A program made the translations under genes and the position numbers. A stretch of DNA of 64,000 nucleotides, taken from an uncultured Candidatus Bathyarchaeia archaeon. GTDB lineage: Archaea; Thermoproteota; Bathyarchaeia; Bathyarchaeales; DTEX01. Shown here piece after piece: positions 17,956 to 45,838 of the stretch. Location of the stretch: NCBI GenBank assembly GCA_964512445.1, contig CAZEGS010000001.1, positions 4,673 to 68,672 on the forward strand. Direction: 5' to 3'. Numbering within the stretch: the first letter of the stretch is position 1; every line of letters begins with the position of its first letter. The notes under the pieces were generated by a model that searched no databases, had not been told where the DNA came from, and was given only the letters and a program-made list of their open reading frames with translations.

Positions 17956-20900
17956 CTAAGCTTCTACAAATTTAGATAAACTCGTTTGTTTAGTCTCCTC
18001 TCCACTCTCGAATATCGATTTTATCTCCTCCTCGATTAGGAAGATCCGCTGAGCATAATATCTAGGCATATCATATTTCTTAATCAGATTCCGAGCTTCT
18101 TCCAGATACTTCTCTATACTACCACGATAGACCGTTAAGGTAAGTTCACCTCCACACTCGATGCATCTGCCTGATAGCGGAGCTCTCCTATACCTCTTGT
18201 TACATCTTTTGCATCTGAAGCTCTGAGACGTGTATGCCCGAAGATTTCCAGAGATGTCCCGTAGAAAATGTGTTGTGAGCACTATCTCTGCTACCCGTTT
18301 CGCGTCTACAGCTTCAATCTTCTCAGCGAGATGTAGCTGAGCATTCAGTTTATCTCTCATCTTCCGGAGCTTCTTGTATTGACTTTCCTTTGTCGCCTCA
18401 TTAATGTTGGATGTTGGAGTTGTAAATCCGAATCCTTGAAGTTGCGTTTCTTTTCCAAACCTATGCTTGACTATATCAATCATCTTCATTAAGTCTCTAG
18501 CACTTGTGCCTTTCAATGTCTCTTCATAGAACTTCAGGGGATACTTGAATGCCACATCGATTTCATGAGCTTGCCTTTGAATTTCTTGGGGATTTATAGC
18601 TCGAATAATAAATAGAGGAGAATCCATTATTCCTCCTATTCGATTCGGCAGATACTCTCTTGAGAAGTTTAAGAAGGCATCTAATGCCATAATTATGCTG
18701 TCTTCATCTCCATCGCAATCTCTACGCTTGGCGGAATGCCAGAATGGGTGAGCGAAGCATACGTTTAGATCAGTGAAGCCTATTATTCTGCCTAGAACAC
18801 CTGCACATGTATGGGGAGCTAATCCTATCACCAATTTTCCAACGAGGTCTTCGGGGCGGGATACATTATAGAATGGAGGTAGATCATATACTTTCTGTAG
18901 AAGCTCATCCACAAATCTCGTTATACGAATCAGATAATCTATGCTCTTTCTGGGAATCACAATATCCTGAACCTTGAGTTCGCATATCTGATCGGATCTG
19001 ACTAGTGGATCTCCCATATAGTCATGGGTATAACCAAGCTTTCTGAGAGTCTTAATTGAGACGCCTATCTCATTCGGCTTGAAGTGTGTTAAGGGAGCAT
19101 TTGTCATATCAAATCTTACAGTTCCATCCTTGTATACTGACAAGTTATATTTGGCTCTGAGGATTCCCTTCTCAAGAATCTCCGGCGTCTTCGTCTTGTT
19201 TGTTAAGCCCTTTACTCCTTTAATTTGTTTCGGCTTGTATCCAAGCTTTTTACATGCTTTATCAAGTAGGCTCTTTAGAGGTATCGATTGCTCCACATAG
19301 TTTCTGGTTTCAATCTTACAGACTGGACAGACCTCGCTCTTCAGGCTTTTTCCACATCTGGGACAGATGAATTCGAGAACTGTTGGAGATCGACAAGAGG
19401 GGCACAGCTGCATAAATGTTGTTATCTGACACTTTGGACATCTCCGCTTAACTATCTCGACACTTATGGCTCTATGCTCGCAGGCTTTTATGATATCTCT
19501 TTGTGCTCCACCGTTCAGACCGACTGGAAAAAGAATGTGAACCGGAGGAGCCATTTCTCTTTTACTTGCCTTTTCCGGACGCCCAACCCTCGCTCCGATA
19601 AATGTTGGAGCTTTATCTCGTATCTTTATCCCCGAGATTCTAGATAGATTTTCAAGAGTTGAAAGTTCATCGTCTATTTCTTCTTTCCCAGCTCCGTCAA
19701 GTCCAAGAGTGAAGGAGAACGAGTATGCATCTTCATTCTCTATAATTATCTTGTCTTCAACAACTCTGTGAGGAATGCATATCTGTTCAAGCTTCTCCTT
19801 TATCTTTCCAACAAGCTTTCCTTCTATTCGCTTTACTATCCCATTGATTTTCTCCACTTTTGCTTCTAGCAGCCAAGAACGAAGCTCCCTCACATCAGAC
19901 GGGAGAATATTAGCCCAGAAATAAGTATACGCTGGATGAAGAGGAACCTTAAGGGTCAGACTTATCTTTGTAGCTTCTTCTACGCTTGGCACGTCATAGA
20001 ATGGAGACTTAATGTATCTCATTAGAGATTCTGGCGGAATAGAAATCTTCTCCGAAGCTTCCTTCAAGTTCCCGCCGAACCTTTCAGCTATCGCCTCCTC
20101 AACTTCCTCCGCCCACCATTCTTCAGTATAGCTTGCCGGAAGGAGCTTCTTGTTATTGTATAGAAAATCACCGAAGCTCACTAGGAGATCGCCGAGAAAA
20201 AGTATCTTGTCAATTTTATCTTTGATGCGATCATAGTTCTCATAGGAGACCTTGACTACCGAGCCGTCTTTCAACTTTACGACGGGCGGTTCTATCGAGT
20301 CTACGGAGAGAACAACTCCTGACTTGCCGGGAGTCTCAATCTTGATCTGGGTGCCTCCTGCCAAAAAATTCTGAAGGATCCTCATTGTTAATGGATGGAC
20401 GGCAACGGCTGCTAGCCCGGTATTTCTAGATCTTCCATAGCGAAGTCTAAATCCGCCCCTTCTTGAGGGGAAGCTCAGTATTGGGCGGCCGGCTGGAACA
20501 TCCTCCATGAAACCTGATTTTTTCTTTCTTACAGCCTCCCGAATATCTTTCAGCCATTCCCATCCTTCGACTCCAAGACCCTCCACAACTGCAAGTACCT
20601 TTGCAGCTCGCCCAACTATGCCATCGTTTACTACGCGCAGGGCTCCCCCTCGCAGACAGTTTGTTTCAATACGAGGGAGATTGCGGAAAGATGAAACCTC
20701 AATATTGTTTGATGGAATTCCCGTGATTTCTACGGGGAGATTCTTTAAAGCTTTCCTTACTTCTTCATCTGAGACGCGATACTGGAAACGGCCAACCTCC
20801 CTTTCATAAAGCCTTAGTTCCTCTATAAAGCGGCTGATCTCTTCTTCAGTCGGCTTATAGCGATCTAAGCCTAGAAGGCGACGGACAAAATCCGCTACAA

Positions 20901-21387
20901 CTGGCGTGAGGGCAGTCTCTGTCCCACCTGCTGATCGTATCGGACCTGCAAAGTATATGGCGAGATATCTGGAGCCATCCATGTTGGATTTGATGAGTAC
21001 CTTGGATATACCTTCTGAGTATACGGCTGCGGTTACCCCTTCTGTGAGAATTGCAAGGGCGGTTCTAATAGCCAGCGCAGCTAACTTTTCATTATCATAT
21101 CGACCAAACTTTCCCTTAACTATCTCCTCAGCAATCTTAAATGCCATCCTCTCTCTTGACATCTTTTTCGAGAGACTTCGTATTCTCTCAGCAAGTTTTG
21201 GTATACCTATGAAGCCCTCCACAAGCCCCGCGAGATCTTCAGCTATCTCAATTTCGGGGTAAGGTTTTGGATCAAGCCCCAACTTTCTGGCCGCTGCAGA
21301 AATCTCACGAATTCTGTTTAGAGCCTTATCTAAATCTGAGAAGTACTTCTGATACTCTTTTGTTAAGTTCTGAAGCAAATCTATCAC
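17956..21387 (-). CDS. dp2: DNA polymerase II (PolD) large subunit DP2
   Basis: 1143 aa. Contains Zn-finger clusters (CPKCQ...CPSC, CPRCG...CPVC, CKRC...CIECG) and the conserved PolD catalytic core. No intein-sized insertion is seen. Confidence 0.95.
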   Translation of the reverse strand: MIDLLQNLTKEYQKYFSDLDKALNRIREISAAARKLGLDPKPYPEIEIAEDLAGLVEGFIGIPKLAERIRSLSKKMSRERMAFKIAEEIVKGKFGRYDNEKLAALAIRTALAILTEGVTAAVYSEGISKVLIKSNMDGSRYLAIYFAGPIRSAGGTETALTPVVADFVRRLLGLDRYKPTEEEISRFIEELRLYEREVGRFQYRVSDEEVRKALKNLPVEITGIPSNNIEVSSFRNLPRIETNCLRGGALRVVNDGIVGRAAKVLAVVEGLGVEGWEWLKDIREAVRKKKSGFMEDVPAGRPILSFPSRRGGFRLRYGRSRNTGLAAVAVHPLTMRILQNFLAGGTQIKIETPGKSGVVLSVDSIEPPVVKLKDGSVVKVSYENYDRIKDKIDKILFLGDLLVSFGDFLYNNKKLLPASYTEEWWAEEVEEAIAERFGGNLKEASEKISIPPESLMRYIKSPFYDVPSVEEATKISLTLKVPLHPAYTYFWANILPSDVRELRSWLLEAKVEKINGIVKRIEGKLVGKIKEKLEQICIPHRVVEDKIIIENEDAYSFSFTLGLDGAGKEEIDDELSTLENLSRISGIKIRDKAPTFIGARVGRPEKASKREMAPPVHILFPVGLNGGAQRDIIKACEHRAISVEIVKRRCPKCQITTFMQLCPSCRSPTVLEFICPRCGKSLKSEVCPVCKIETRNYVEQSIPLKSLLDKACKKLGYKPKQIKGVKGLTNKTKTPEILEKGILRAKYNLSVYKDGTVRFDMTNAPLTHFKPNEIGVSIKTLRKLGYTHDYMGDPLVRSDQICELKVQDIVIPRKSIDYLIRITRFVDELLQKVYDLPPFYNVSRPEDLVGKLVIGLAPHTCAGVLGRIIGFTDLNVCFAHPFWHSAKRRDCDGDEDSIIMALDAFLNFSREYLPNRIGGIMDSPLFIIRAINPQEIQRQAHEIDVAFKYPLKFYEETLKGTSARDLMKMIDIVKHRFGKETQLQGFGFTTPTSNINEATKESQYKKLRKMRDKLNAQLHLAEKIEAVDAKRVAEIVLTTHFLRDISGNLRAYTSQSFRCKRCNKRYRRAPLSGRCIECGGELTLTVYRGSIEKYLEEARNLIKKYDMPRYYAQRIFLIEEEIKSIFESGEETKQTSLSKFVEA

Positions 21388-21403
21388 TTGAGCTTTTATT
21401 TGC

Positions 21404-21715
21404 TTATTCAGTGTGAATTCTGCAGAGTATAATTGTGGACCACTTCTCTATTGGACGCCCAACGACTTGACGATAAGTATTCTTTGCAAGTTCTACTCTA
21501 TGATTAACGCATGATCTACATCGTTCATGTCTCATGTCTGAAGGCCCATCACACTGACCACAGTTGAGAAGTAAAGTCTCTCCTAAACCTTTAAGATTTG
21601 TCCAAGCAAACTCTCGCTCATCATATTCAGGTTCAAAGTCAGGCCAAATATCATAGAGATCCTCTTGCCCTAAAACTTTCTTTAGGGATGCAAAATAATT
21701 CTCAAATGAGGTCAC
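21404..21715 (-). CDS. small zinc-ribbon protein, hypothetical
   Basis: 103-aa ORF with CGQC-x9-CRSC, tightly packed between the GGGP synthase and dp2 genes on the same strand. Confidence 0.45.
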   Translation of the reverse strand: MTSFENYFASLKKVLGQEDLYDIWPDFEPEYDEREFAWTNLKGLGETLLLNCGQCDGPSDMRHERCRSCVNHRVELAKNTYRQVVGRPIEKWSTIILCRIHTE

Positions 21716-21731
21716 TGCCTTTTCACCTCAA

Positions 21732-22529
21732 TCAGCTAGACTGGCTAGTATTTCTATGTATTACTCCCTCTTTTATGCCTTCTACTATCTCCTTGATCTT
21801 GATCCTAAGCGATTGCGGATCACTCTCCTCCAAAGCAGTACTGGCAACTACGATATCGGCTCCGGCATGAACGATCTCTTTCGCTTGAACCCCTGTTCTT
21901 ACCCCGCCGCCAACAAGAAGAGGTAAATTAACAGTACTCTTCACCATCCTAATAATATTGGATGGAACAGGCTTGCTTACCCCAGATCCGCCTTCTAAAT
22001 AAATGAACCGCATACCCAAGTATTGAGCTGCTAAAGCATGAGCAGCTGCTAAGCCAGACTTGTTATAGGGAATAGGACATGCCTTTCCGATTACCGCTGC
22101 TGCGCCTCCCTCACCTAAAATCATGTAGCCAAGAGGAATCGGCTCTATACGTAATTTTTTAATTAGAGGAGCGGCAAGTACTTGTGCTCCAATTATGAAG
22201 TAGGGATCAGCAGAGTTAAGAAGCGACATGAACCATATTGCATCTGCATATCTGCTGATACCCGTAATATTGTTTGGAAATAGAATTATAGGTATGTTGA
22301 CGCTCTTCTTGATTGATTTAACAATCTCATCGAGATCCTCGGCGGAGACAAGTGTAGAGCCTCCCACCATAATTGCTGAAGCTCCTGCTTTCTCGCCTTC
22401 CTCCGCTATGAGAGAAGCAGACTCGCTAGTGACCTCTTCAGGATCAATTAAGGGTATGAATATGGAGCCTTTTTCTCGAATGCTTCTGAGAAGGTATCTT
22501 TCAATCTTACCTAACATGAACCTTTTCAC
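21732..22529 (-). CDS. geranylgeranylglyceryl phosphate synthase (PcrB/GGGPS family)
   Basis: 265 aa TIM barrel. The FIPLIDPE, MVGGS, FIYLEGGSG and LLVGGGV motifs are typical of GGGPS. Confidence 0.88.
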   Translation of the reverse strand: MKRFMLGKIERYLLRSIREKGSIFIPLIDPEEVTSESASLIAEEGEKAGASAIMVGGSTLVSAEDLDEIVKSIKKSVNIPIILFPNNITGISRYADAIWFMSLLNSADPYFIIGAQVLAAPLIKKLRIEPIPLGYMILGEGGAAAVIGKACPIPYNKSGLAAAHALAAQYLGMRFIYLEGGSGVSKPVPSNIIRMVKSTVNLPLLVGGGVRTGVQAKEIVHAGADIVVASTALEESDPQSLRIKIKEIVEGIKEGVIHRNTSQSS

Positions 22530-22539
22530 CTTTTCAGAA

Positions 22540-22767
22540 CTAACTATAATAGTTGTCGATGAACATGCAGTAGATGTCGACCGCCTCTAGATGCTCCTTT
22601 TTAGGAATCTCTGCAACCAGTCCGCAGCTTCCGCATTTTACAATAGCATTCTCAGAGTTCCTTTTAATTTCGATTTTAATCGCTTCCCTACCACATCTTG
22701 GACAGAGAAACACGCTGGGAAGCTTCTTTTTAGGCATCCGAATAACTTTTCGTCTTCTTCTACCCAT
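22540..22767 (-). CDS. elf1: Elf1-like transcription elongation factor (zinc ribbon)
   Basis: Basic N-terminus MGRRRRKVIRMPKKKLP, then FLCPRCG...VKCGSCG...EAVDIYCMFID, which parallels eukaryotic Elf1 (C4 ribbon followed by VDVYSDWID-like tail). Confidence 0.8.
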   Translation of the reverse strand: MGRRRRKVIRMPKKKLPSVFLCPRCGREAIKIEIKRNSENAIVKCGSCGLVAEIPKKEHLEAVDIYCMFIDNYYS

Positions 22768-22841
22768 CTCTCATCCAACAGAAAATGAATATGGAATATA
22801 TCCTCTCTTAAAGGTTTGCTGTTTTTAATCTATATATTTTA

Positions 22842-22914
22842 GTGTGATGTAACATGTGATCTAAGAATGATGTGTTACATCACAGATCACATCAAGCGAA
22901 TTTAGAGATCACAC
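22842..22914. repeat. palindromic word cluster A (TGTGAT / ATCACA family)
   Basis: TGTGAT at 22843 and 22855. TGATGT-GTT-ACATCA at 22868-22882, nested inside TGTGATCT (22855-62) / AGATCACA (22884-91). GATCACAC at 22907-14. Confidence 0.8.
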
Positions 22915-23229
22915 GTAACGTTGAAGGTTCAGGTTTCAGATAGCAGTCTTAAGAGATTTCTAAGAAACAAAAAGCTCCCTGAAAAACTCGTTTTTGATCA
23001 AGATAAAAATAGGCAATTTTAGTTTAAAATTGCTAATAATCTTTAAAAAATCAAATAAAAACTCGAGTGGAGCGTTTTTTGAGGGTCTCTGTATGATAGA
23101 TTCTGCTTATTGCAAAGGCTTATAAGGTATGATGGGATTAGGGTGTATATAAAATTGTATCCAAATGAGGGGTGATTCTTCCTGAAAGATGAATCTTTAA
23201 AAAATAGTATTAGAAGGTGGCTTTTAGGA

Positions 23230-23673
23230 ATTTTTCGAGACCCTATTGTCGAAATACTTCTAAAAAACAGTCATTTAACAAAAATACAACTAGAAACGCT
23301 TTTAATTGATTTTTTAGCAGAAAAAATGTCCGGAAAAAGAATAGTTTACGAAGACAAAGCTAAGATGAGACTTATAAAAACTGGTGTAAGCCGCGGCTCT
23401 TTCAACCGAACCTTAGCTCAAGCTAAATATAATACTATAAAATCCATCTACACACTTATTCTATTAGGTTATCTTGGGATCCTCGATACGCCACATCTTG
23501 ACCCTTACATTGAAATTTCTAATAGAATAAGAGACTATATGGAAGCATACAGAACTTTTTGGCAGGAAGGAAAACAAACAAAAGAACATCTCAGAATAAT
23601 GCAAATGCTACAGCGAGAACTAGAAGATGGTTTAATGAGGCTTTCTAAGCCAAAATCGATGAGCAATAAGTGA
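23230..23673 (+). CDS. small HTH DNA-binding protein (sigma-70 region 4 / Tfx-like pattern), start uncertain
   Basis: The track start is ATG 23326, but the frame is open from 23176 and reads protein-like (LKNSIRRWLLGIFRDPIVEILLKNSHLTKIQLETLLIDFLAEK). ATT at 23230 lies 9 nt after AGGTGG. HTH candidate: GVSRGSFNRTLAQAKYNTIKSI. Confidence 0.55.
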   Translation: MFRDPIVEILLKNSHLTKIQLETLLIDFLAEKMSGKRIVYEDKAKMRLIKTGVSRGSFNRTLAQAKYNTIKSIYTLILLGYLGILDTPHLDPYIEISNRIRDYMEAYRTFWQEGKQTKEHLRIMQMLQRELEDGLMRLSKPKSMSNK

Positions 23674-23693
23674 TCTGTGACATCACATATCAC
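23670..23693. repeat. palindromic word cluster B
   Basis: GTGAT-CT-GTGA-CA-TCAC-AT-ATCAC, a 24-nt interrupted palindrome overlapping the TGA stop of the HTH ORF. Confidence 0.8.
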
Positions 23694-23793
23694 ACTAGAC
23701 ATTCTAAGTGTTTTCATAAAAGATAAAGAAATAGGCCTATTTTAAAGCTCTTTTTGTGAACAAAAATAATTTTTGGGAAAGTTTTTTATGATG

Positions 23794-23856
23794 CTAGTGA
23801 TATCATATATGATCTGATTGTGATGTGTGACATCACAGGTTGGAGAGTGTGATCTT
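23794..23856. repeat. palindromic word cluster C
   Basis: GTGATATCA; TGTGATGT-GTG-ACATCACA at 23819-23837; GTGTGATCT at 23847-23855. 23806-23840 matches 22853-22887 at 27/35 positions. Confidence 0.8.
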
Positions 23857-23869
23857 GGAAGATTTTACA

Positions 23870-24526
23870 ATGCTGATGATTAATTTACTGCTGTTCTTCT
23901 CGATATCAACAATTCTAGTAATATATATTAAAAAAATTCGGAATGCCGACATAGAGTATACAAAGGCAAAAAGTATCCTAGAAGAAATAGTTCTGAGTTT
24001 TAGTAGGGAAATTCAGGATTTAGAACAGAAAATTGAAGATATCAATGTAAGATTAGAGAATATTCGGATGCTTGATAAGGATCAAATTAAGTCGGAACTT
24101 AACGCTCTTTCTTCTAAGATAGAAAACTTGATGAGCCTATATTCATCTTTAGAGAGAAAGATTGAGAATTTTAAGGCAGAGATTAATAGATTTTCAAGAT
24201 CTATCAGTCAACAAACAGCAGATGTAAGGGAAGAATCAGAGCCGGACATAACACCTAAACCAGCTTTTCATCTAAGAAGAGAAAGAGCTCTAGCGCCTTT
24301 AACACCAACAGAGCTCAAAGTTTTGGAGATTTTATCTACTGAAGGAGATAAGACTGTACGTGAGATTAGGAGTAGGCTTGGATTAACGAGGGAACATACT
24401 GGACGTTTGATGAAGAGTCTATATGATAGAGGATATGTTGAAAGAAGAACAAATAGGATCCCTTATGTATATAGAATTAAGAGGGAGATGGAGAATCTTC
24501 TCAATAGAAATCAAAGTGATTTTTAA
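23870..24526 (+). CDS. membrane-anchored coiled-coil protein with C-terminal MarR/TrmB-like winged helix
   Basis: N-terminal TM MLMINLLLFFSISTILVIYI. About 110 aa of heptad-like sequence (EQKIEDINVRLENIRML...LERKIENFKAEINRF). C-terminal LTPTELKVLEILSTEGDKTVREIRSRLGLTREHTGRLMKSLYDRGYVER. Confidence 0.65.
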   Translation: MLMINLLLFFSISTILVIYIKKIRNADIEYTKAKSILEEIVLSFSREIQDLEQKIEDINVRLENIRMLDKDQIKSELNALSSKIENLMSLYSSLERKIENFKAEINRFSRSISQQTADVREESEPDITPKPAFHLRRERALAPLTPTELKVLEILSTEGDKTVREIRSRLGLTREHTGRLMKSLYDRGYVERRTNRIPYVYRIKREMENLLNRNQSDF

Positions 24527-24527
24527 T

Positions 24528-24926
24528 TCATCTGGTTATAAGAAGACGAAAACGAGTTTTGTTTGAAGATTTCTGTTTAATGAGTAAGCCTCGATTAGCC
24601 AAACGGGATAGATAAGTAGAAACGGTGCTTAAACCTATATGTTCACCTGTAACATTCTCGTATTCTATCTGTACATCTCTCGGAGAAAACCAAGAAGATG
24701 AAAAATTTTTCTCAATTATAGATTTAATTTTTTCAAATTTCGTTAGACTTTCCTCCGCCCTTTCTGAAAACTTATCTTCATGCATTCCTCCAAGAAGCTC
24801 GATCATATCTAAAATTTTGAGAACATTTCTTCTAGAGATCTTCCCCTCCAGCATAATGGTATATCGATTACCTGATTCATCGTAAACTTCAATACGCAGC
24901 TTCCTCGCAGGCAATACCCTCACCAT
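24528..24926 (-). CDS. winged-helix DNA-binding protein, hypothetical
   Basis: 132 aa. C-terminal HIGLSTVSTYLSRLANRGLLIKQK is a wHTH recognition-helix pattern. It is transcribed away from the oriC left flank. Confidence 0.6.
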   Translation of the reverse strand: MVRVLPARKLRIEVYDESGNRYTIMLEGKISRRNVLKILDMIELLGGMHEDKFSERAEESLTKFEKIKSIIEKNFSSSWFSPRDVQIEYENVTGEHIGLSTVSTYLSRLANRGLLIKQKSSNKTRFRLLITR

Positions 24927-25114
24927 AAGCTAAAGGATCATTTCATTTCTCTAGTTACACTTCACAAGTTATAAGATAATCGGTGATATGTGAAAATAAA
25001 AAAAGAAAAATTATGGATAAAATAAAGAAAGAGCCGAAAAATCCAAAAATTTCCAGAGAAACTTCACAGATTTTTTGCGATAACAAAAAAGGAAAAGGAA
25101 AAAGAAAAGGGATC

Positions 25115-25142
25115 AAATCTCCAGTGGAAACGAAGGGGTGGC
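25115..25142 (+). repeat. ORB1 (origin recognition box, forward)
   Basis: AAATCTCCAGTGGAAACGAAGGGGTGG. Confidence 0.85.
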
Positions 25143-25293
25143 CTTTCACAAAAAAGTGAAAATAAATCAGGATTATAAAAAGAAGAAAAACTCAAAAATA
25201 GACTTTTACCTAGTAATTTAAAACAGATTTTCAAAAACAATATATTTTATTCGTACTCAGTGATAAAACTTGTATTTACTGTTAACAACGGAC

Positions 25294-25318
25294 GCACCCA
25301 TATTTTTCCAGTGGAAAT
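25294..25318 (-). repeat. ORB2 (origin recognition box, reverse orientation)
   Basis: GCACCCATATTTTTCCAGTGGAAAT. The reverse complement gives TTTCCACTGGAAAAATATGGGTG. Confidence 0.8.
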
Positions 25319-25395
25319 AAATTTTTTACTTTTCTTATTTCTAAAAAATGAAATAAATATAATCATATATTCACATTCCACGCCCAAAATAATGT

Positions 25396-25427
25396 TATTT
25401 CCAGTTGAAATAATGGGGTGTGGGGGT
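25396..25427 (+). repeat. ORB3 (origin recognition box, forward)
   Basis: TATTTCCAGTTGAAATAATGGGGTGTGGGGG. Confidence 0.8.
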
Positions 25428-25538
25428 TCCTCAATGTGATTTGTTTTATTATCAATTTTTTTGTAGAGCAGATCTTATCTATGAAACCCGATGTGAGCTG
25501 ATTGTCTTTAACAATTCACCGATATCAGAGGATCACAA

Positions 25539-26780
25539 ATGAACAAACAAAGCGAAATATTGGAGGAGGTCTTCAACAACTTTTTAGGAGAATCCAGAAT
25601 CTTTAAGAATAGAGAAGCTCTCAGACATGATTACATTCCTGATTATCTTCCCCATAGAGAAGAAGAGATTCGAATGCTCGGTCAAATATTAGGCCCCTCA
25701 TTAAGAGGTACACTTTGCTCCAATATCCTTATTTATGGAAAAACTGGGACAGGAAAAACTGCGGTGACAAAATTTGTTCTTAAACGTTTAGCAGAAAAAG
25801 CTGATGAGATTAATTCTCCACTCAGAGTTTCATTTGTAAATTGTAGACTTGTTGGAACAGAGTACAGGGTGCTTTCAGCATTATGCTCCAGTATAGACGT
25901 CAAGGTTCCATTTACTGGACTTGCTTTAGGTGAAGTTTTTGATAGGTTTAAATCAGCTCTAGATTCTCAAAAAATCGTTCTAGTAGTAGCATTAGATGAA
26001 ATAGATGCTCTAATAAAGGATAGAGGAGATATCCTCCTCTATGAACTTACAAGAATTAATGAAAATCTCAGTCAAAGCAAAGTTTCAATTCTAGGAATCT
26101 CTAATGATCTTCGATTCAAAGACATGCTTGATCCAAGAGTTCTTAGTACTTTAAGCGAAGAGGAAATAATATTCAAGCCATACAATGCTGAGGAGCTTCA
26201 AGATATTTTAGAGCAGCGCGCCAAGATCGCATTTAAAGAAGATGTCTCAGCTGATGTTGCCATAAAATTATGTTCAGCAATCGCAGCCGCTGAGCATGGA
26301 GATGCAAGAAGAGCCTTAGATCTTCTCAGAGTAGCTGCGGAGTTGGCTGAAAGGGAAGGTGAAAGAACAATCACGGAGGATCATGTATATCGAGCGCAGA
26401 AAAGGATCGAACATGATCGTGTTGTTGAAACTCTAAAGAGTCTTCCAATGCATTCTAAAATTGTTCTTTTAAGCATCTTTCTACTTTCAAAATCAAAAGC
26501 AAAGGGATTCATGACGGGTGACATCTATAATGTTTACTGTGAGTTATGCAAGGAGATGGGTGTAAACCCGCTCACACAAAGAAGGGTCAGTGGATTAATA
26601 AATGAACTTGATGTAATTGGACTTGTCAATTCAAGAGTTGTGAGTTTAGGCAGATATGGCAGATCAAAAAAGACTACTCTCGGAGTACCCTATAGTGTGA
26701 TAAAAGAGGCTCTTTTCGAGGATGAAAGAATGCGAAATATGGTAACATATATTCCTAGATATCTAAATTCTATACGTTAA
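25539..26780 (+). CDS. cdc6: Orc1/Cdc6 replication initiator (AAA+ plus winged helix)
   Basis: Walker A GKTGTGKT, Walker B VVALDEID, sensor regions and a C-terminal wH (RRVSGLINELDVIGLV). Confidence 0.95.
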   Translation: MNKQSEILEEVFNNFLGESRIFKNREALRHDYIPDYLPHREEEIRMLGQILGPSLRGTLCSNILIYGKTGTGKTAVTKFVLKRLAEKADEINSPLRVSFVNCRLVGTEYRVLSALCSSIDVKVPFTGLALGEVFDRFKSALDSQKIVLVVALDEIDALIKDRGDILLYELTRINENLSQSKVSILGISNDLRFKDMLDPRVLSTLSEEEIIFKPYNAEELQDILEQRAKIAFKEDVSADVAIKLCSAIAAAEHGDARRALDLLRVAAELAEREGERTITEDHVYRAQKRIEHDRVVETLKSLPMHSKIVLLSIFLLSKSKAKGFMTGDIYNVYCELCKEMGVNPLTQRRVSGLINELDVIGLVNSRVVSLGRYGRSKKTTLGVPYSVIKEALFEDERMRNMVTYIPRYLNSIR

Positions 26781-26796
26781 AGCCAAAGATATCCCT

Positions 26797-28329
26797 TTAT
26801 AAGGAAGACACAAAATTTAATGGAAAGATTCTGAAGCTCTGAAGATCTATTATTGGTGCTATTCCCGGGTTAGGCGTATGCCCCATCTCTCTTTGGTATT
26901 CAGTCTGCTCCTGCCATGCTCCTGAATTCACTATTATTGTTCCTCTATAAGAGCTATAGCTCATCATGTGAACGTGTCCAGCATGAAATATGTCCGGTTC
27001 CTCTTCAATAACTAGATGATCCATCGGTTCCGATGCTATAAGAGTCCTTGATCCATAAGTAGGTGCTAAATGTCTGCATTGAAGAAGGAACTTCATTGCT
27101 TCATCTGGCTTATCAAAGCTCATTCCCGGCACGGTTGATATCACATCATCTAAGCTACGACCATGCATAACTAAGATTTTAACTCCATGAAGACTAATCA
27201 TGGACGGATTACCTAAAAGATAGATCTCTCTTTTCTCATAAAGCGGCTCGGCATATTCCTTAGGTATAGCGGGCTGAGGTAAGGCTCTTCTGCATGCGTC
27301 ATGATTGCCAGGTATTAAAACCACATCGATGTATTCTGGAATTTCTTCTATCATTCTAGCCGCAGCATCATATTGCTGATAAATGTCATCTATATCCAAC
27401 TCTTCAATCTGTTTTGGATAGATCCCAACACCATCAACAATATCCCCTGCTATTACAACATATTTCACATGAGATGCTATGTCTCTTAGATATCTATTCC
27501 CTACCTTACCTTTTAACCACTGTACAAAACGTTTGAAGGAATCTTCCATAAACATCTTGCTTCCAACATGCATATCAGAAAGAAGCGCGGCGTAAACTGG
27601 AAGTTTTGCTCCTTTCGGCTTTCTCAACGGCAAATCAGGATATATTATATCCTCGGCGATTAGAAGGTCTCCTCGCCCTTTGATGGCGCAGATACAAATT
27701 ACTTGATCCAACACTAATCTTTGTCCTTTACGATAGAGCTCTAGATTCTGTGATGGTACAAAGACTTTCGCGCTGGTCTCTAAATCTTCAACTTGCAAAA
27801 AGATTCCATTTTGAGATTCACGTTTCTCCATTAGCATACATGTAAATTTCACTCTTGAGTTAAGCGGAGCCTTTAAAGCTTGGGCAATACTTCCTGAGTC
27901 TCCTGAATCAACTCTGCTCCTCAATATCTTTCGAATTCTCCGAAATCGATCCTGAAAGTACCTAATATAATTTTTGAGGGAGCCGGTCGTGCTTATAACG
28001 TCTGTCGGATCATCCAGCACTTCTATTTCCGAATCAATCTCTTTTGCATACGGCTTATAACCGCCTTTCCCCGTTATAACGATAGTTCCCCCATTATCCG
28101 ACGGTACTTGCAGTTCCCTAATCTTTTTCTCTATGAGTCTACGCTTCAAGAATAGCGGTTTTTCTGGAAGACTATTCGCCTCCTCAACGATGCTTCTAAC
28201 AAGAAGATCCAGATCCAATCTTTTCGAGGCTTCTTTCAATGCTTGAAAAGCATCACTATCAATCTGGTATCCCGATTCGATTATGAAGGAAATTGCACGT
28301 TTTAGTTTGGTGATTTGCTCCAAGGCCAC
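26797..28329 (-). CDS. dp1: DNA polymerase II (PolD) small subunit DP1 (Mre11-like phosphodiesterase)
   Basis: 510 aa. OB domain plus calcineurin-like motifs (LSDMHVGS, IAGDIVDG, PGNHD, MHGRS, GHVH). GTG start. Confidence 0.93.
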   Translation of the reverse strand: MALEQITKLKRAISFIIESGYQIDSDAFQALKEASKRLDLDLLVRSIVEEANSLPEKPLFLKRRLIEKKIRELQVPSDNGGTIVITGKGGYKPYAKEIDSEIEVLDDPTDVISTTGSLKNYIRYFQDRFRRIRKILRSRVDSGDSGSIAQALKAPLNSRVKFTCMLMEKRESQNGIFLQVEDLETSAKVFVPSQNLELYRKGQRLVLDQVICICAIKGRGDLLIAEDIIYPDLPLRKPKGAKLPVYAALLSDMHVGSKMFMEDSFKRFVQWLKGKVGNRYLRDIASHVKYVVIAGDIVDGVGIYPKQIEELDIDDIYQQYDAAARMIEEIPEYIDVVLIPGNHDACRRALPQPAIPKEYAEPLYEKREIYLLGNPSMISLHGVKILVMHGRSLDDVISTVPGMSFDKPDEAMKFLLQCRHLAPTYGSRTLIASEPMDHLVIEEEPDIFHAGHVHMMSYSSYRGTIIVNSGAWQEQTEYQREMGHTPNPGIAPIIDLQSFRIFPLNFVSSL

Positions 28330-28516
28330 CTTTCAACTTTTCTTTTTTATTGAATAAATGTTGATGGCTATTTAGTTTAAAATCATTGCTGACCGCTTAA
28401 AGCTTGACGCCTCAAGAAAGTACATACATGTTTAGACTTATCCAATATTCTTTTATTCTATTAGTATTTCTTAATTTTTGTGGAATTGACGCGTCTTTCA
28501 TTGGAGTATAACTGCG

Positions 28517-29539
28517 ATGGGGCTTCGTAAGATTCAGAAAACGAGAGGCGGAACCTTCTTTGTAACTCTACCGAAAGACTGGGCCTTAAAAAATGGAATT
28601 AAGAGAGGATCAGTTGTTTATACCTCAATAACTTCCAATGGACGGCTTATCATTGATCCACGTTACGATCTGAAACCTGAGCCTTTAACCATCACGATTA
28701 AACCAACGCCTTATCTAAGCCGAGAAATCATAGGTAAATATCTTTTAGGCTATGATGTGATCCGGATATCCGCTAAAGATAGGATAACTATGGAGCAGAG
28801 AGAAACAGTAAAAGAAACTGTTAGTAGACTTATAGGGTTAGAAATTATAGAAGAGGATCATTCAAACATTGTTATACAGTGCTTACTGCAACCCGATGCT
28901 CTCTCACCCGAAAAGGTTCTTCGACGTGAATATCTCATATCCTCTGGAATGCTTCGAGACTCAATGAGGGCTATTCTTCAAAAAGATATACAACTCGCAA
29001 AGAGTGTTATTGCACGAGATAATGAAGTAGATCGATTATACTTTCTCGTTGTTCGCATATTAAGAACAATTATTCAAAATCCTCGTTTAAGCGACAAACT
29101 CGAGATTTCTCCAATAGACTGTTTAGATTATCGTCTGACTGCTAGTTTAGTCGAATCAGTTGGGGATCAAGCTTCTCAGATTGCAGGTCATGCCGTGAAG
29201 TTAGTTGAAGCTAATATACCTAAGAAAGTTTTTGTTTCTCTTCAGAGATTGCATGAAAGTGTGAATGAAGCGTATCAAGAAGCTGTAGCCGCTTTCCTTT
29301 CAAGAAGCATCTCAATTGCAGAATCGGTTCGTGACAAAGAAGAAGAGATAGAGAACTTATGTGAAGATGTCGAATCAGCATCTGCTGAGCTACCTGCCGA
29401 AACATATCAAAGAGTTATCTCCGTTGTTTCTTTGATAAGTCGTATCTATGACCACAGCGTAGACATATCTGACTTAACCACCCCTCGAATCGGTAAAAGA
29501 TTAATCCGCGAGTCTAAGGAGCGCTCTGACCTACTTTAG
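28517..29539 (+). CDS. AbrB/SpoVT-domain plus PhoU-domain regulator (archaeal phosphate uptake regulator-like)
   Basis: N-terminal GGTFFVTLPKDWALKNGIKRGS (swapped-hairpin AbrB type), followed by two PhoU-like helical repeats (ARDNEVDRLYF...). Confidence 0.75.
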   Translation: MGLRKIQKTRGGTFFVTLPKDWALKNGIKRGSVVYTSITSNGRLIIDPRYDLKPEPLTITIKPTPYLSREIIGKYLLGYDVIRISAKDRITMEQRETVKETVSRLIGLEIIEEDHSNIVIQCLLQPDALSPEKVLRREYLISSGMLRDSMRAILQKDIQLAKSVIARDNEVDRLYFLVVRILRTIIQNPRLSDKLEISPIDCLDYRLTASLVESVGDQASQIAGHAVKLVEANIPKKVFVSLQRLHESVNEAYQEAVAAFLSRSISIAESVRDKEEEIENLCEDVESASAELPAETYQRVISVVSLISRIYDHSVDISDLTTPRIGKRLIRESKERSDLL

Positions 29540-45749: not shown

Positions 45750-45838
45750 GCCCCGGTGGCTTAGCGGTTAGAGCAACGGCCTCGTATATGGAAAGAGAGA
45801 GCCGTGGGTCGCGGGTTCAAATCCCGCCCGGGGCTCCA
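45750..45838 (+). tRNA. tRNA-Thr (anticodon CGU) with 13-nt intron at canonical 37/38 position; CCA encoded
   Basis: Hand-folded. Acceptor GCCCCGG/CCGGGGC, D stem GCTT/GAGC, anticodon stem ACGGC/GCCGT, loop CTCGTA-[TATGGAAAGAGAG]-A, T arm GCGGG-TTCAAAT-CCCGC, discriminator T, CCA. Confidence 0.9.

Follow-up and report, generated by a model that had tools for sequence, protein, structure and literature searches.

Few uncultured archaea are as abundant in sediments as the Bathyarchaeia. In this study, we have analysed a stretch of 64,000 nucleotides (hereafter the window) from an uncultured Candidatus Bathyarchaeia archaeon (contig CAZEGS010000001.1, positions 4,673 to 68,672), in which an earlier note had proposed a chromosomal replication origin next to the initiator gene orc1/cdc6 (hereafter cdc6). 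The candidate origin lies between cdc6 and a divergent gene, orf132, and it carries three origin recognition boxes (ORBs), the second and third of which are inverted around an AT-rich spacer (Table 1). For comparison, we used 80 Bathyarchaeia loci with a cdc6 orthologue (protein identity 55-89%; about 9 kb per locus), which together with the window make 81 loci, and a close-clade footprint was drawn from seven relatives whose Cdc6 is 86-95% identical to that of the window. Six closed Bathyarchaeia chromosomes have this locus (CP070714, CP070730, CP070791, CP070820, CP070828 and CP070835).

Table 1. Features around the candidate origin; positions count from the first letter of the window
Feature	Position	Strand	Details or basis
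ORB1	25117-25142	+	aTCTCCAGTGGAAACGAAGGGGTGGc; dyad CTCCAGTGGAAA 25119-25130, then CGAA, then G-string GGGGTGG 25135-25141
ORB2, inverted	25293-25318	-	minus strand reads ATTTCCACTGGAAAAATATGGGTGCG
ORB3	25397-25426	+	ATTTCCAGTTGAAATAATGGGGTGTGGGGG; dyad TTCCAGTTGAAA 25399-25410, then TAAT, then G-string GGGGTGTGGGGG 25415-25426
AT-rich spacer, presumed duplex unwinding element (DUE) and MCM loading zone	25319-25396	.	composition, duplex stability
orc1/cdc6 initiator, 413 aa, Orc1-1 orthologue	25539-26780	+	Pfam Cdc6_C, Cdc6_lid, AAA
Conserved block after ORB3, presumed cdc6 promoter	25427-25480	+	TATA-like TTTTATTATC 25444-25453
PolD small subunit DP1 (dp1), convergent with cdc6	26797-28329	-	Pfam DNA_pol_E_B, Metallophos
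PolD large subunit (dp2)	17956-21387	-	4 kb upstream (left) of the origin
Homopurine (A-rich) tract, 28 nt, left of ORB1	25085-25112	+	sequence
TTCACA box, about -54/-56 from ORB1, directly after 25051-25062	25063-25068	+	position recurs in distant loci
Palindrome TTTCAC-AAAAAA-GTGAAA, abutting the ORB1 G-string	25144-25161	.	contains TTCACA box 25145-25150
TTCACA box	25370-25375		sequence
Block upstream of orf132, presumed promoter with flanking boxes	24961-24994	.	TTCACA 24961-24966, TTATAA 24969-24974, TGTGAA 24989-24994
orf132, 132 aa, uncharacterised, C-terminal winged helix, transcribed away from the origin	24528-24926	-	candidate TTCACA-box binder
MarR/TrmB-like winged-helix protein, N-terminal coiled coil, second candidate binder	23840-24526	+	Pfam MarR, TrmB

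All three boxes listed in the earlier note lie where it had placed them and read as it had quoted them. The full ORB form, present in three copies upstream of cdc6, consists of the dyad TTCCAGTGGAAA, four nucleotides and GGGGTG; each copy has no mismatch or one in the dyad, with GGGGT or TGGGT at the fixed offset of four nucleotides (N4), and the proposed match to the archaeal ORB consensus is therefore borne out. The published form of that consensus, GTTCCAGTGGAAAC-AAA----GGGGG (PMC1868953), is matched by the boxes of the window and of its relatives alike. On the plus strand, ORB2 appears as CACCC (25295-25299; CACCCA at 25295-25300), six nucleotides and the dyad TTCCAGTGGAAA (25306-25317); on its own strand it reads TTTCCACTGGAAAAATATGGGTG, with dyad and G-string as TTTCCACTGGAAA-AATA-TGGGTG. 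ORB1 stands 187 bp to the left, and the ORB2-ORB3 module measures 132 bp from G-string to G-string (25295-25426), with both dyads facing the AT-rich spacer and both G-strings pointing outward.

A 12-nt dyad turns up often by chance if two or three mismatches are allowed, and one could suppose that the boxes are chance matches in AT-rich intergenic DNA. Such loose dyads do occur at chance level in the window, and because of this the ORB signal must sit in near-perfect boxes rather than in loose matches. When at most one mismatch to TTCCAGTGGAAA is allowed, the three ORBs are the sole sites in the window, giving four strand-matches where 0.41 are expected, and none of 100 shuffles of the 64 kb reached four. 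Scanning with a 26-nt ORB matrix trained on the relatives alone, the window being excluded, returned exactly three matches of at least 8 bits, namely ORB1 (37.0 bits), ORB2 (24.8 bits) and ORB3 (33.6 bits), as compared with a best score of 12.8 bits among shuffles. Together with the boxes' position and orientation, which are kept in 72 loci (below), the shuffles and matrix scores refute a chance origin of the boxes and leave it practically no probability.

Two further elements had been described on the left flank. A degenerate mini-ORB, TTCCAGAGAAAC at 25051-25062, does not hold up: it has three mismatches to the dyad, a class of match found 79 times in the window for 70 expected, its score on the ORB matrix is under 8 bits, and it is 44% conserved in the close clade; what recurs at this place in relatives is the adjoining TTCACA box, and we have rejected 25051-25062 as an ORB. 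The purine run to the left of ORB1 does exist, and relatives keep its richness in A, not the strict purine run.

Conservation of the boxes beside cdc6 in relatives had been proposed as a check on the origin, and here the result is clear. At a matrix threshold of 14 bits, 72 of the 81 loci have the order ORB(+)/ORB(-)/ORB(+) in the roughly 670 bp upstream of their cdc6 orthologue, with an ORB1 homologue at the same relative position and a minus-strand ORB at the ORB2 position; contig ends truncate five of the other nine loci, and in the remaining four one box is weak. Every match of at least 14 bits (236/236) falls upstream of cdc6, with none in about 600 kb of flanking DNA. The dyad alone behaves similarly: with at most one mismatch, it occurs at 105 sites in the 54 kb that lie within 700 bp upstream of cdc6 and at 4 sites in the other 609 kb, which amounts to a density about 295-fold that of the flanks. 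In 96 of 98 oriented sites from the relatives, GGGGT follows the dyad after exactly four bases. ORB3 is found about 140-185 bp upstream of cdc6 in relatives, and within the close clade the identity of ORB1 (across six relatives), ORB2 and ORB3 is 89%, 79% and 82%, respectively, as compared with 40-43% for the intergenic spacers. Three of the contigs bear labels from elsewhere, L001 (QNCD01000150.1, Omnitrophota bacterium), L004 (CAZVWZ010000140.1, Desulfurococcaceae archaeon) and L064 (DASPTR010000173.1, Acidoferrum sp.). They carry a Bathyarchaeial cdc6 (89%, 87% and 55% identity, respectively), with all three ORBs in L001 and L004 and two in L064, which is cut by a contig end; these contigs are probably mis-binned.

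The spacer between ORB2 and ORB3 had been put forward as a plausible unwinding element, and its properties agree with this. The stretch 25319-25395 is 80.5% AT, as compared with 58.5% for the window, and the least stable 77 bp of the window (25300-25376) overlap it; at scales of 200 bp and 400 bp, too, no part of the window is less stable than the origin region. Across the class, the AT content of the ORB2-ORB3 gap exceeds that of the ORB1-ORB2 gap in 68 of 72 loci. Since the sequence of the spacer is poorly conserved (43% identity in the close clade), composition is what it keeps. Its length from dyad to dyad is 161-165 bp (interquartile range) across the sampled Bathyarchaeia loci, and the subclade of the window (the window, L001, L003 and L004) has a compact form of 81-95 bp (25318-25398 in the window). 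As a separate observation, many Bathyarchaeia origins have the conserved motif TCAGAGTAT(A/T)TTT in their AT-rich spacer, some 45-60 bp ahead of ORB3 (for example in L028, L034, L039, L050, L055, L067, L075 and L076); TCAGAG occurs 58 times for 9 expected, and the TCAGAGTAT motif is absent from the compact spacer of the window. This motif could be a functional counterpart of the ucm motif of Sulfolobus.

The initiator gene starts 113 bp downstream of ORB3. Among solved structures, its product matches Orc1-1 of S. solfataricus (2QBY_A, 2.5e-118) and ORC1 of Aeropyrum (2V1U_A, 4e-110), as opposed to just 3.5e-58 for Orc1-3, and it passes the ORC1-type equivalog model NCBIfam NF001625 (529.7 bits for a cut-off of 501 bits). 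Its homologues are from Bathyarchaeia (e.g. 85% identity to Bathyarchaeota archaeon B63), a 141.9-kb contig encodes a Cdc6 that is 99% identical, and both the wing motif GRYG(R/K) and the VPFTGL motif of the initiator-specific motif (ISM) region are conserved in the alignment. No second cdc6 was found in the window by tblastn. Directly after ORB3, the block 25427-25480 is 88% identical in close relatives, with a long invariant run, and its position and TATA-like sequence make it the likely cdc6 promoter. Because the end of ORB3 and the TATA-like element downstream are 17 bp apart, initiator binding might feed back on the transcription of cdc6. The same proximity would suit another account of the locus: Orc1/Cdc6 would bind the ORB cluster, but the cluster would act chiefly as an autoregulatory operator of cdc6 or be a dormant origin, replication starting elsewhere or by recombination. 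An operator, however, would need neither three boxes spread over 310 bp nor two inverted boxes flanking the DNA of lowest stability in the window; the composition and length of the spacer are conserved class-wide, and autoregulation and origin function can coexist.

The surroundings of the origin are conserved as well. Downstream of cdc6, dp1 is present in 80 of 80 loci, and the conserved order is orf132, ORBs, cdc6, dp1, phoU, the synteny of orf132, dp1 and phoU extending over 64-80 of the 80 loci; in the window, the neighbours of cdc6 include genes for a PhoU/AbrB protein, GGGP synthase and Elf1. The clustering of replication genes at the origin (17956-28329) recalls the origin neighbourhoods of Pyrococcus and Haloferax. 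The earlier note had also seen a switch of gene orientation at this site, and locally this is so: orf132 (minus) and cdc6 (plus) point away from the origin, an arrangement seen in 70 of 80 loci; it is not a clean switch, with two plus-strand genes (23326-24526) on the left and dp1 (minus) head-on on the right.

Archaeal orc1-origin pairs have often been acquired from mobile elements (PMC4010727), and the block 22001-27000, which takes in the origin together with the small regulator genes on its left side, is lower in GC than the rest of the window (0.34-0.36 vs about 0.42). Both points could speak for a pair captured from an integrated plasmid or virus, that is, an extrachromosomal replicon, and not belonging to the ancestral chromosome. 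Against this, the initiator is an orthologue of the core Orc1-1, the synteny just described holds among loci with 55-89% protein identity, there is no integrase among the genes examined in 17956-29539 and no tRNA target near the origin, and the low GC of the block follows from its long AT-rich intergenic stretches. We consider such a capture very unlikely.

Several other candidates were examined in this part of the window. A structured RNA or tRNA in 22700-25600 was rejected, since no Rfam family matches there at E <=1 and no tRNA was found there. A 64-aa open reading frame (ORF) on the minus strand (24955-25149) that overlaps ORB1 is regarded as spurious, the region aligning in relatives as non-coding DNA with indels, and a scan for sigma-70 promoters and intrinsic terminators gave chance-level results that are not relevant to archaea. 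Within the lower-GC block, a stretch of 558 bp (22768-23325) has no ORF of at least 60 aa and several inverted repeats. Away from the origin, Rfam finds an 86-nt tRNA (60.9 bits) at 45750-45835 on the plus strand, absent from the ARAGORN results and possibly an archaeal tRNA that contains an intron.

The arrangement described here comes closest to origins that are already known. As in Sulfolobus (Saccharolobus) oriC1, three ORBs lie beside the gene for Orc1-1, which is the closest solved homologue of the Cdc6 of the window, and an AT-rich DUE separates the inverted ORB2 and ORB3 (PMC12141716); the likeness covers the inversion of ORB2 and ORB3, not which of dyad and G-string faces the DUE. In S. 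islandicus, the functionally dissected ORB3-DUE-ORB2 region of oriC1 measures 130 bp, as compared with 132 bp here, and both ORBs are individually required in vivo (PMC12141716). The two differ in that the DUE of Sulfolobus contains the ucm motif ATTATACAAAC, for which 25319-25396 has no match with at most two mismatches (matches window-wide are at chance level, 23 for 21 expected), whereas the window has TTCACA boxes at the flanks of ORB1 and on the left side. The oriC of Pyrococcus and other Thermococcales shares a nearly identical ORB core (TTCCAGTGGAACT in the Pyrococcus mini-ORB, TTCCAGTGGAAA here) and a position upstream of cdc6 with PolD genes alongside (PMC1904270). Unlike the Thermococcales, whose 13-bp mini-ORBs are numerous and whose dp1 contains a second ORB cluster, the window has three full ORBs only, and its dp1 contains no dyad with at most two mismatches; here dp1 is convergent with cdc6, and dp2 is on the other side of the origin. 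In Haloferax and other haloarchaea, oriC1 likewise has orc1 beside an ORB-flanked DUE, dp1 nearby, and an ORB made of a mini-ORB and a G-string (PMC1868953, PMC4010727). The Bathyarchaeial ORB differs from the haloarchaeal one in being compact, with a fixed N4 spacer. The oriC1 of Aeropyrum pernix has four ORBs in two pairs, as compared with three in the window. The likeness to A. pernix lies in the initiator, through the ORC1 chain of 2V1U, which is an ORC1-ORB complex (PMC3089459).

Based on these results, the site is very probably an oriC1-type (Orc1-1/ORB) origin of chromosomal replication, as the earlier note had read it: the ORBs beside cdc6 are conserved, an Orc1-1 orthologue is adjacent and the AT-rich gap recurs. 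The boxes, their non-random occurrence and orientation, the instability of the spacer, the orthology of the initiator and the class-wide layout are all borne out by the analysis, and every sequence-level feature that defines an oriC1-type origin is present. By analogy with Sulfolobus oriC1 (PMC12141716), monomers of the Orc1-1 orthologue encoded next door would bind to all three ORBs in a fixed polarity, ORB1 being a third initiator site. ATP-bound initiators on the inverted ORB2 and ORB3 would then recruit MCM hexamers onto the AT-rich spacer, where the DNA would melt and bidirectional replication would start. Initiator binding, MCM loading, firing in vivo and any autoregulation are inferred.

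Several points weigh against the site being an active origin. The G-string of ORB2 is weakened (TGGGTG), and this box has the lowest matrix score of the three. Gene strand is weakly biased on either side of the site, at 62% minus to the left and 51% plus to the right. Cumulative GC skew tracks gene strand with no inflection at 25.2 kb (64 kb giving low power), and when GC3 skew over the 64 kb was regressed with correction for strand, a break placed at 25.0-25.5 kb came in at rank 82-83 of 116 (side coefficient -0.006). Skew methods are known to fail in some archaea (PMC4640148), and we put the missing signal down to low power and do not take it as a refutation. Moreover, the presumed origin of Thermococcus kodakarensis and its Cdc6 have been reported to be dispensable (PMC5663688), and because of this a canonical ORB cluster is no proof of use in vivo. 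The lack of a skew signal and the precedents for dispensable and dormant archaeal origins (PMC5663688, PMC4595724) could be claimed for the operator or dormant origin considered above. That account, however, has to be set against a layout that matches a functionally dissected origin (PMC12141716), in addition to the extent of the cluster and the conservation of its spacer, and we regard it as unlikely.

Beyond the ORBs, the Bathyarchaeial origin regions share a second motif. In 72 ORB-masked origin regions, TTCACA/TGTGAA is the most enriched hexamer, with 285 occurrences for 18 expected from shuffles and 35 expected from its frequency in the flanks. The boxes stand at fixed offsets from ORB1 (about -175, -159, -54 and +27), and most of the class has an additional cluster at +100/+110/+120, which the subclade of the window lacks in its ORB1-ORB2 gap. 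Palindromes of the form TTCAC-N5-8-GTGAA are found 39 times in origin regions and twice outside in the sampled DNA, and tandem TTCACA boxes 46 and 9 times, respectively. The window has five boxes in 612 bp for 0.37 expected, starting at 24961, 24989 (minus), 25063, 25145 and 25370. The palindrome that abuts ORB1 is 85% identical in close relatives, and TTCACA at +26/+27 from ORB1 recurs class-wide. In the close clade, the box at 25063-25068 is replaced by a nearby TGTGAA, and its conservation is 33%. To the left, a conserved TTATAA stands between the boxes at 24961 and 24989, so that the conserved origin region begins near 24950, left of the coordinates in the earlier note. This block, the presumed promoter of orf132, corresponds to the class-wide consensus cTTCACAaGTTATAGctgTTacGGTGAA at -159 to -130 from ORB1 and is 71% identical in the close clade.

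Two adjoining genes encode proteins that could bind these boxes. In 70 of 80 loci, the first, orf132, lies upstream of the origin and is transcribed divergently; it has been assigned to neither a Pfam nor an NCBIfam family, and its homologues number more than 4000, every organism-labelled one of which is from Bathyarchaeia. Its AlphaFold2 (AF2) model has a predicted local distance difference test score (pLDDT) of 76, and Foldseek gives winged-helix matches (RosR, Fur, MarR, BlaI) at E about 1e-2. On the grounds of fold, we have rejected orf132 as a UBP homologue, the model having a winged helix where UBP has been described as a saddle protein with beta-hairpins (PMC12141716). The second, the MarR/TrmB-like gene, is conserved in 55 loci. 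The region upstream of it is bracketed by two perfect palindromes TGTGACATCACA (TGTGA-N2-TCACA; 23676-23687 and 23826-23837) that share the TCACA half-site with the TTCACA boxes of the origin and are probably the operator of this gene. Such palindromes recur in relatives, 39 of 42 occurrences lying 1.5-4 kb upstream of cdc6, and more inverted repeats of this kind are seen around 22840-22920. Tentatively, the TTCACA boxes may form a lineage-specific second cis layer, bound by orf132 or the MarR/TrmB-like protein as an accessory origin factor; we find this possible and rather doubtful. Its role would be comparable to that of ucm/UBP at Sulfolobus oriC1 or of IHF/Fis at bacterial oriC.

In conclusion, our literature search found no paper joining Bathyarchaeota or Bathyarchaeia with ORBs or with the description of a replication origin. 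The origin is ordinary in kind, useful but unsurprising, and the TTCACA layer with its winged-helix genes is, as a hypothesis, the one part that might be new biology. These boxes and genes represent a candidate accessory system, which would be modest news unless binding and function were shown; if real, a TTCACA-box accessory factor could couple initiation to regulatory input. The class-wide ORB matrix and the fixed layout (orf132, ORB+, ORB-, DUE, ORB+, cdc6, dp1) provide a reliable genome landmark, which can serve to orient metagenome-assembled genomes, to anchor estimates of growth rate from the peak-to-trough ratio of read depth and to flag mis-binned contigs. More broadly, our results extend the evidence for the Orc1-1/oriC1 pair as ancestral in archaea.

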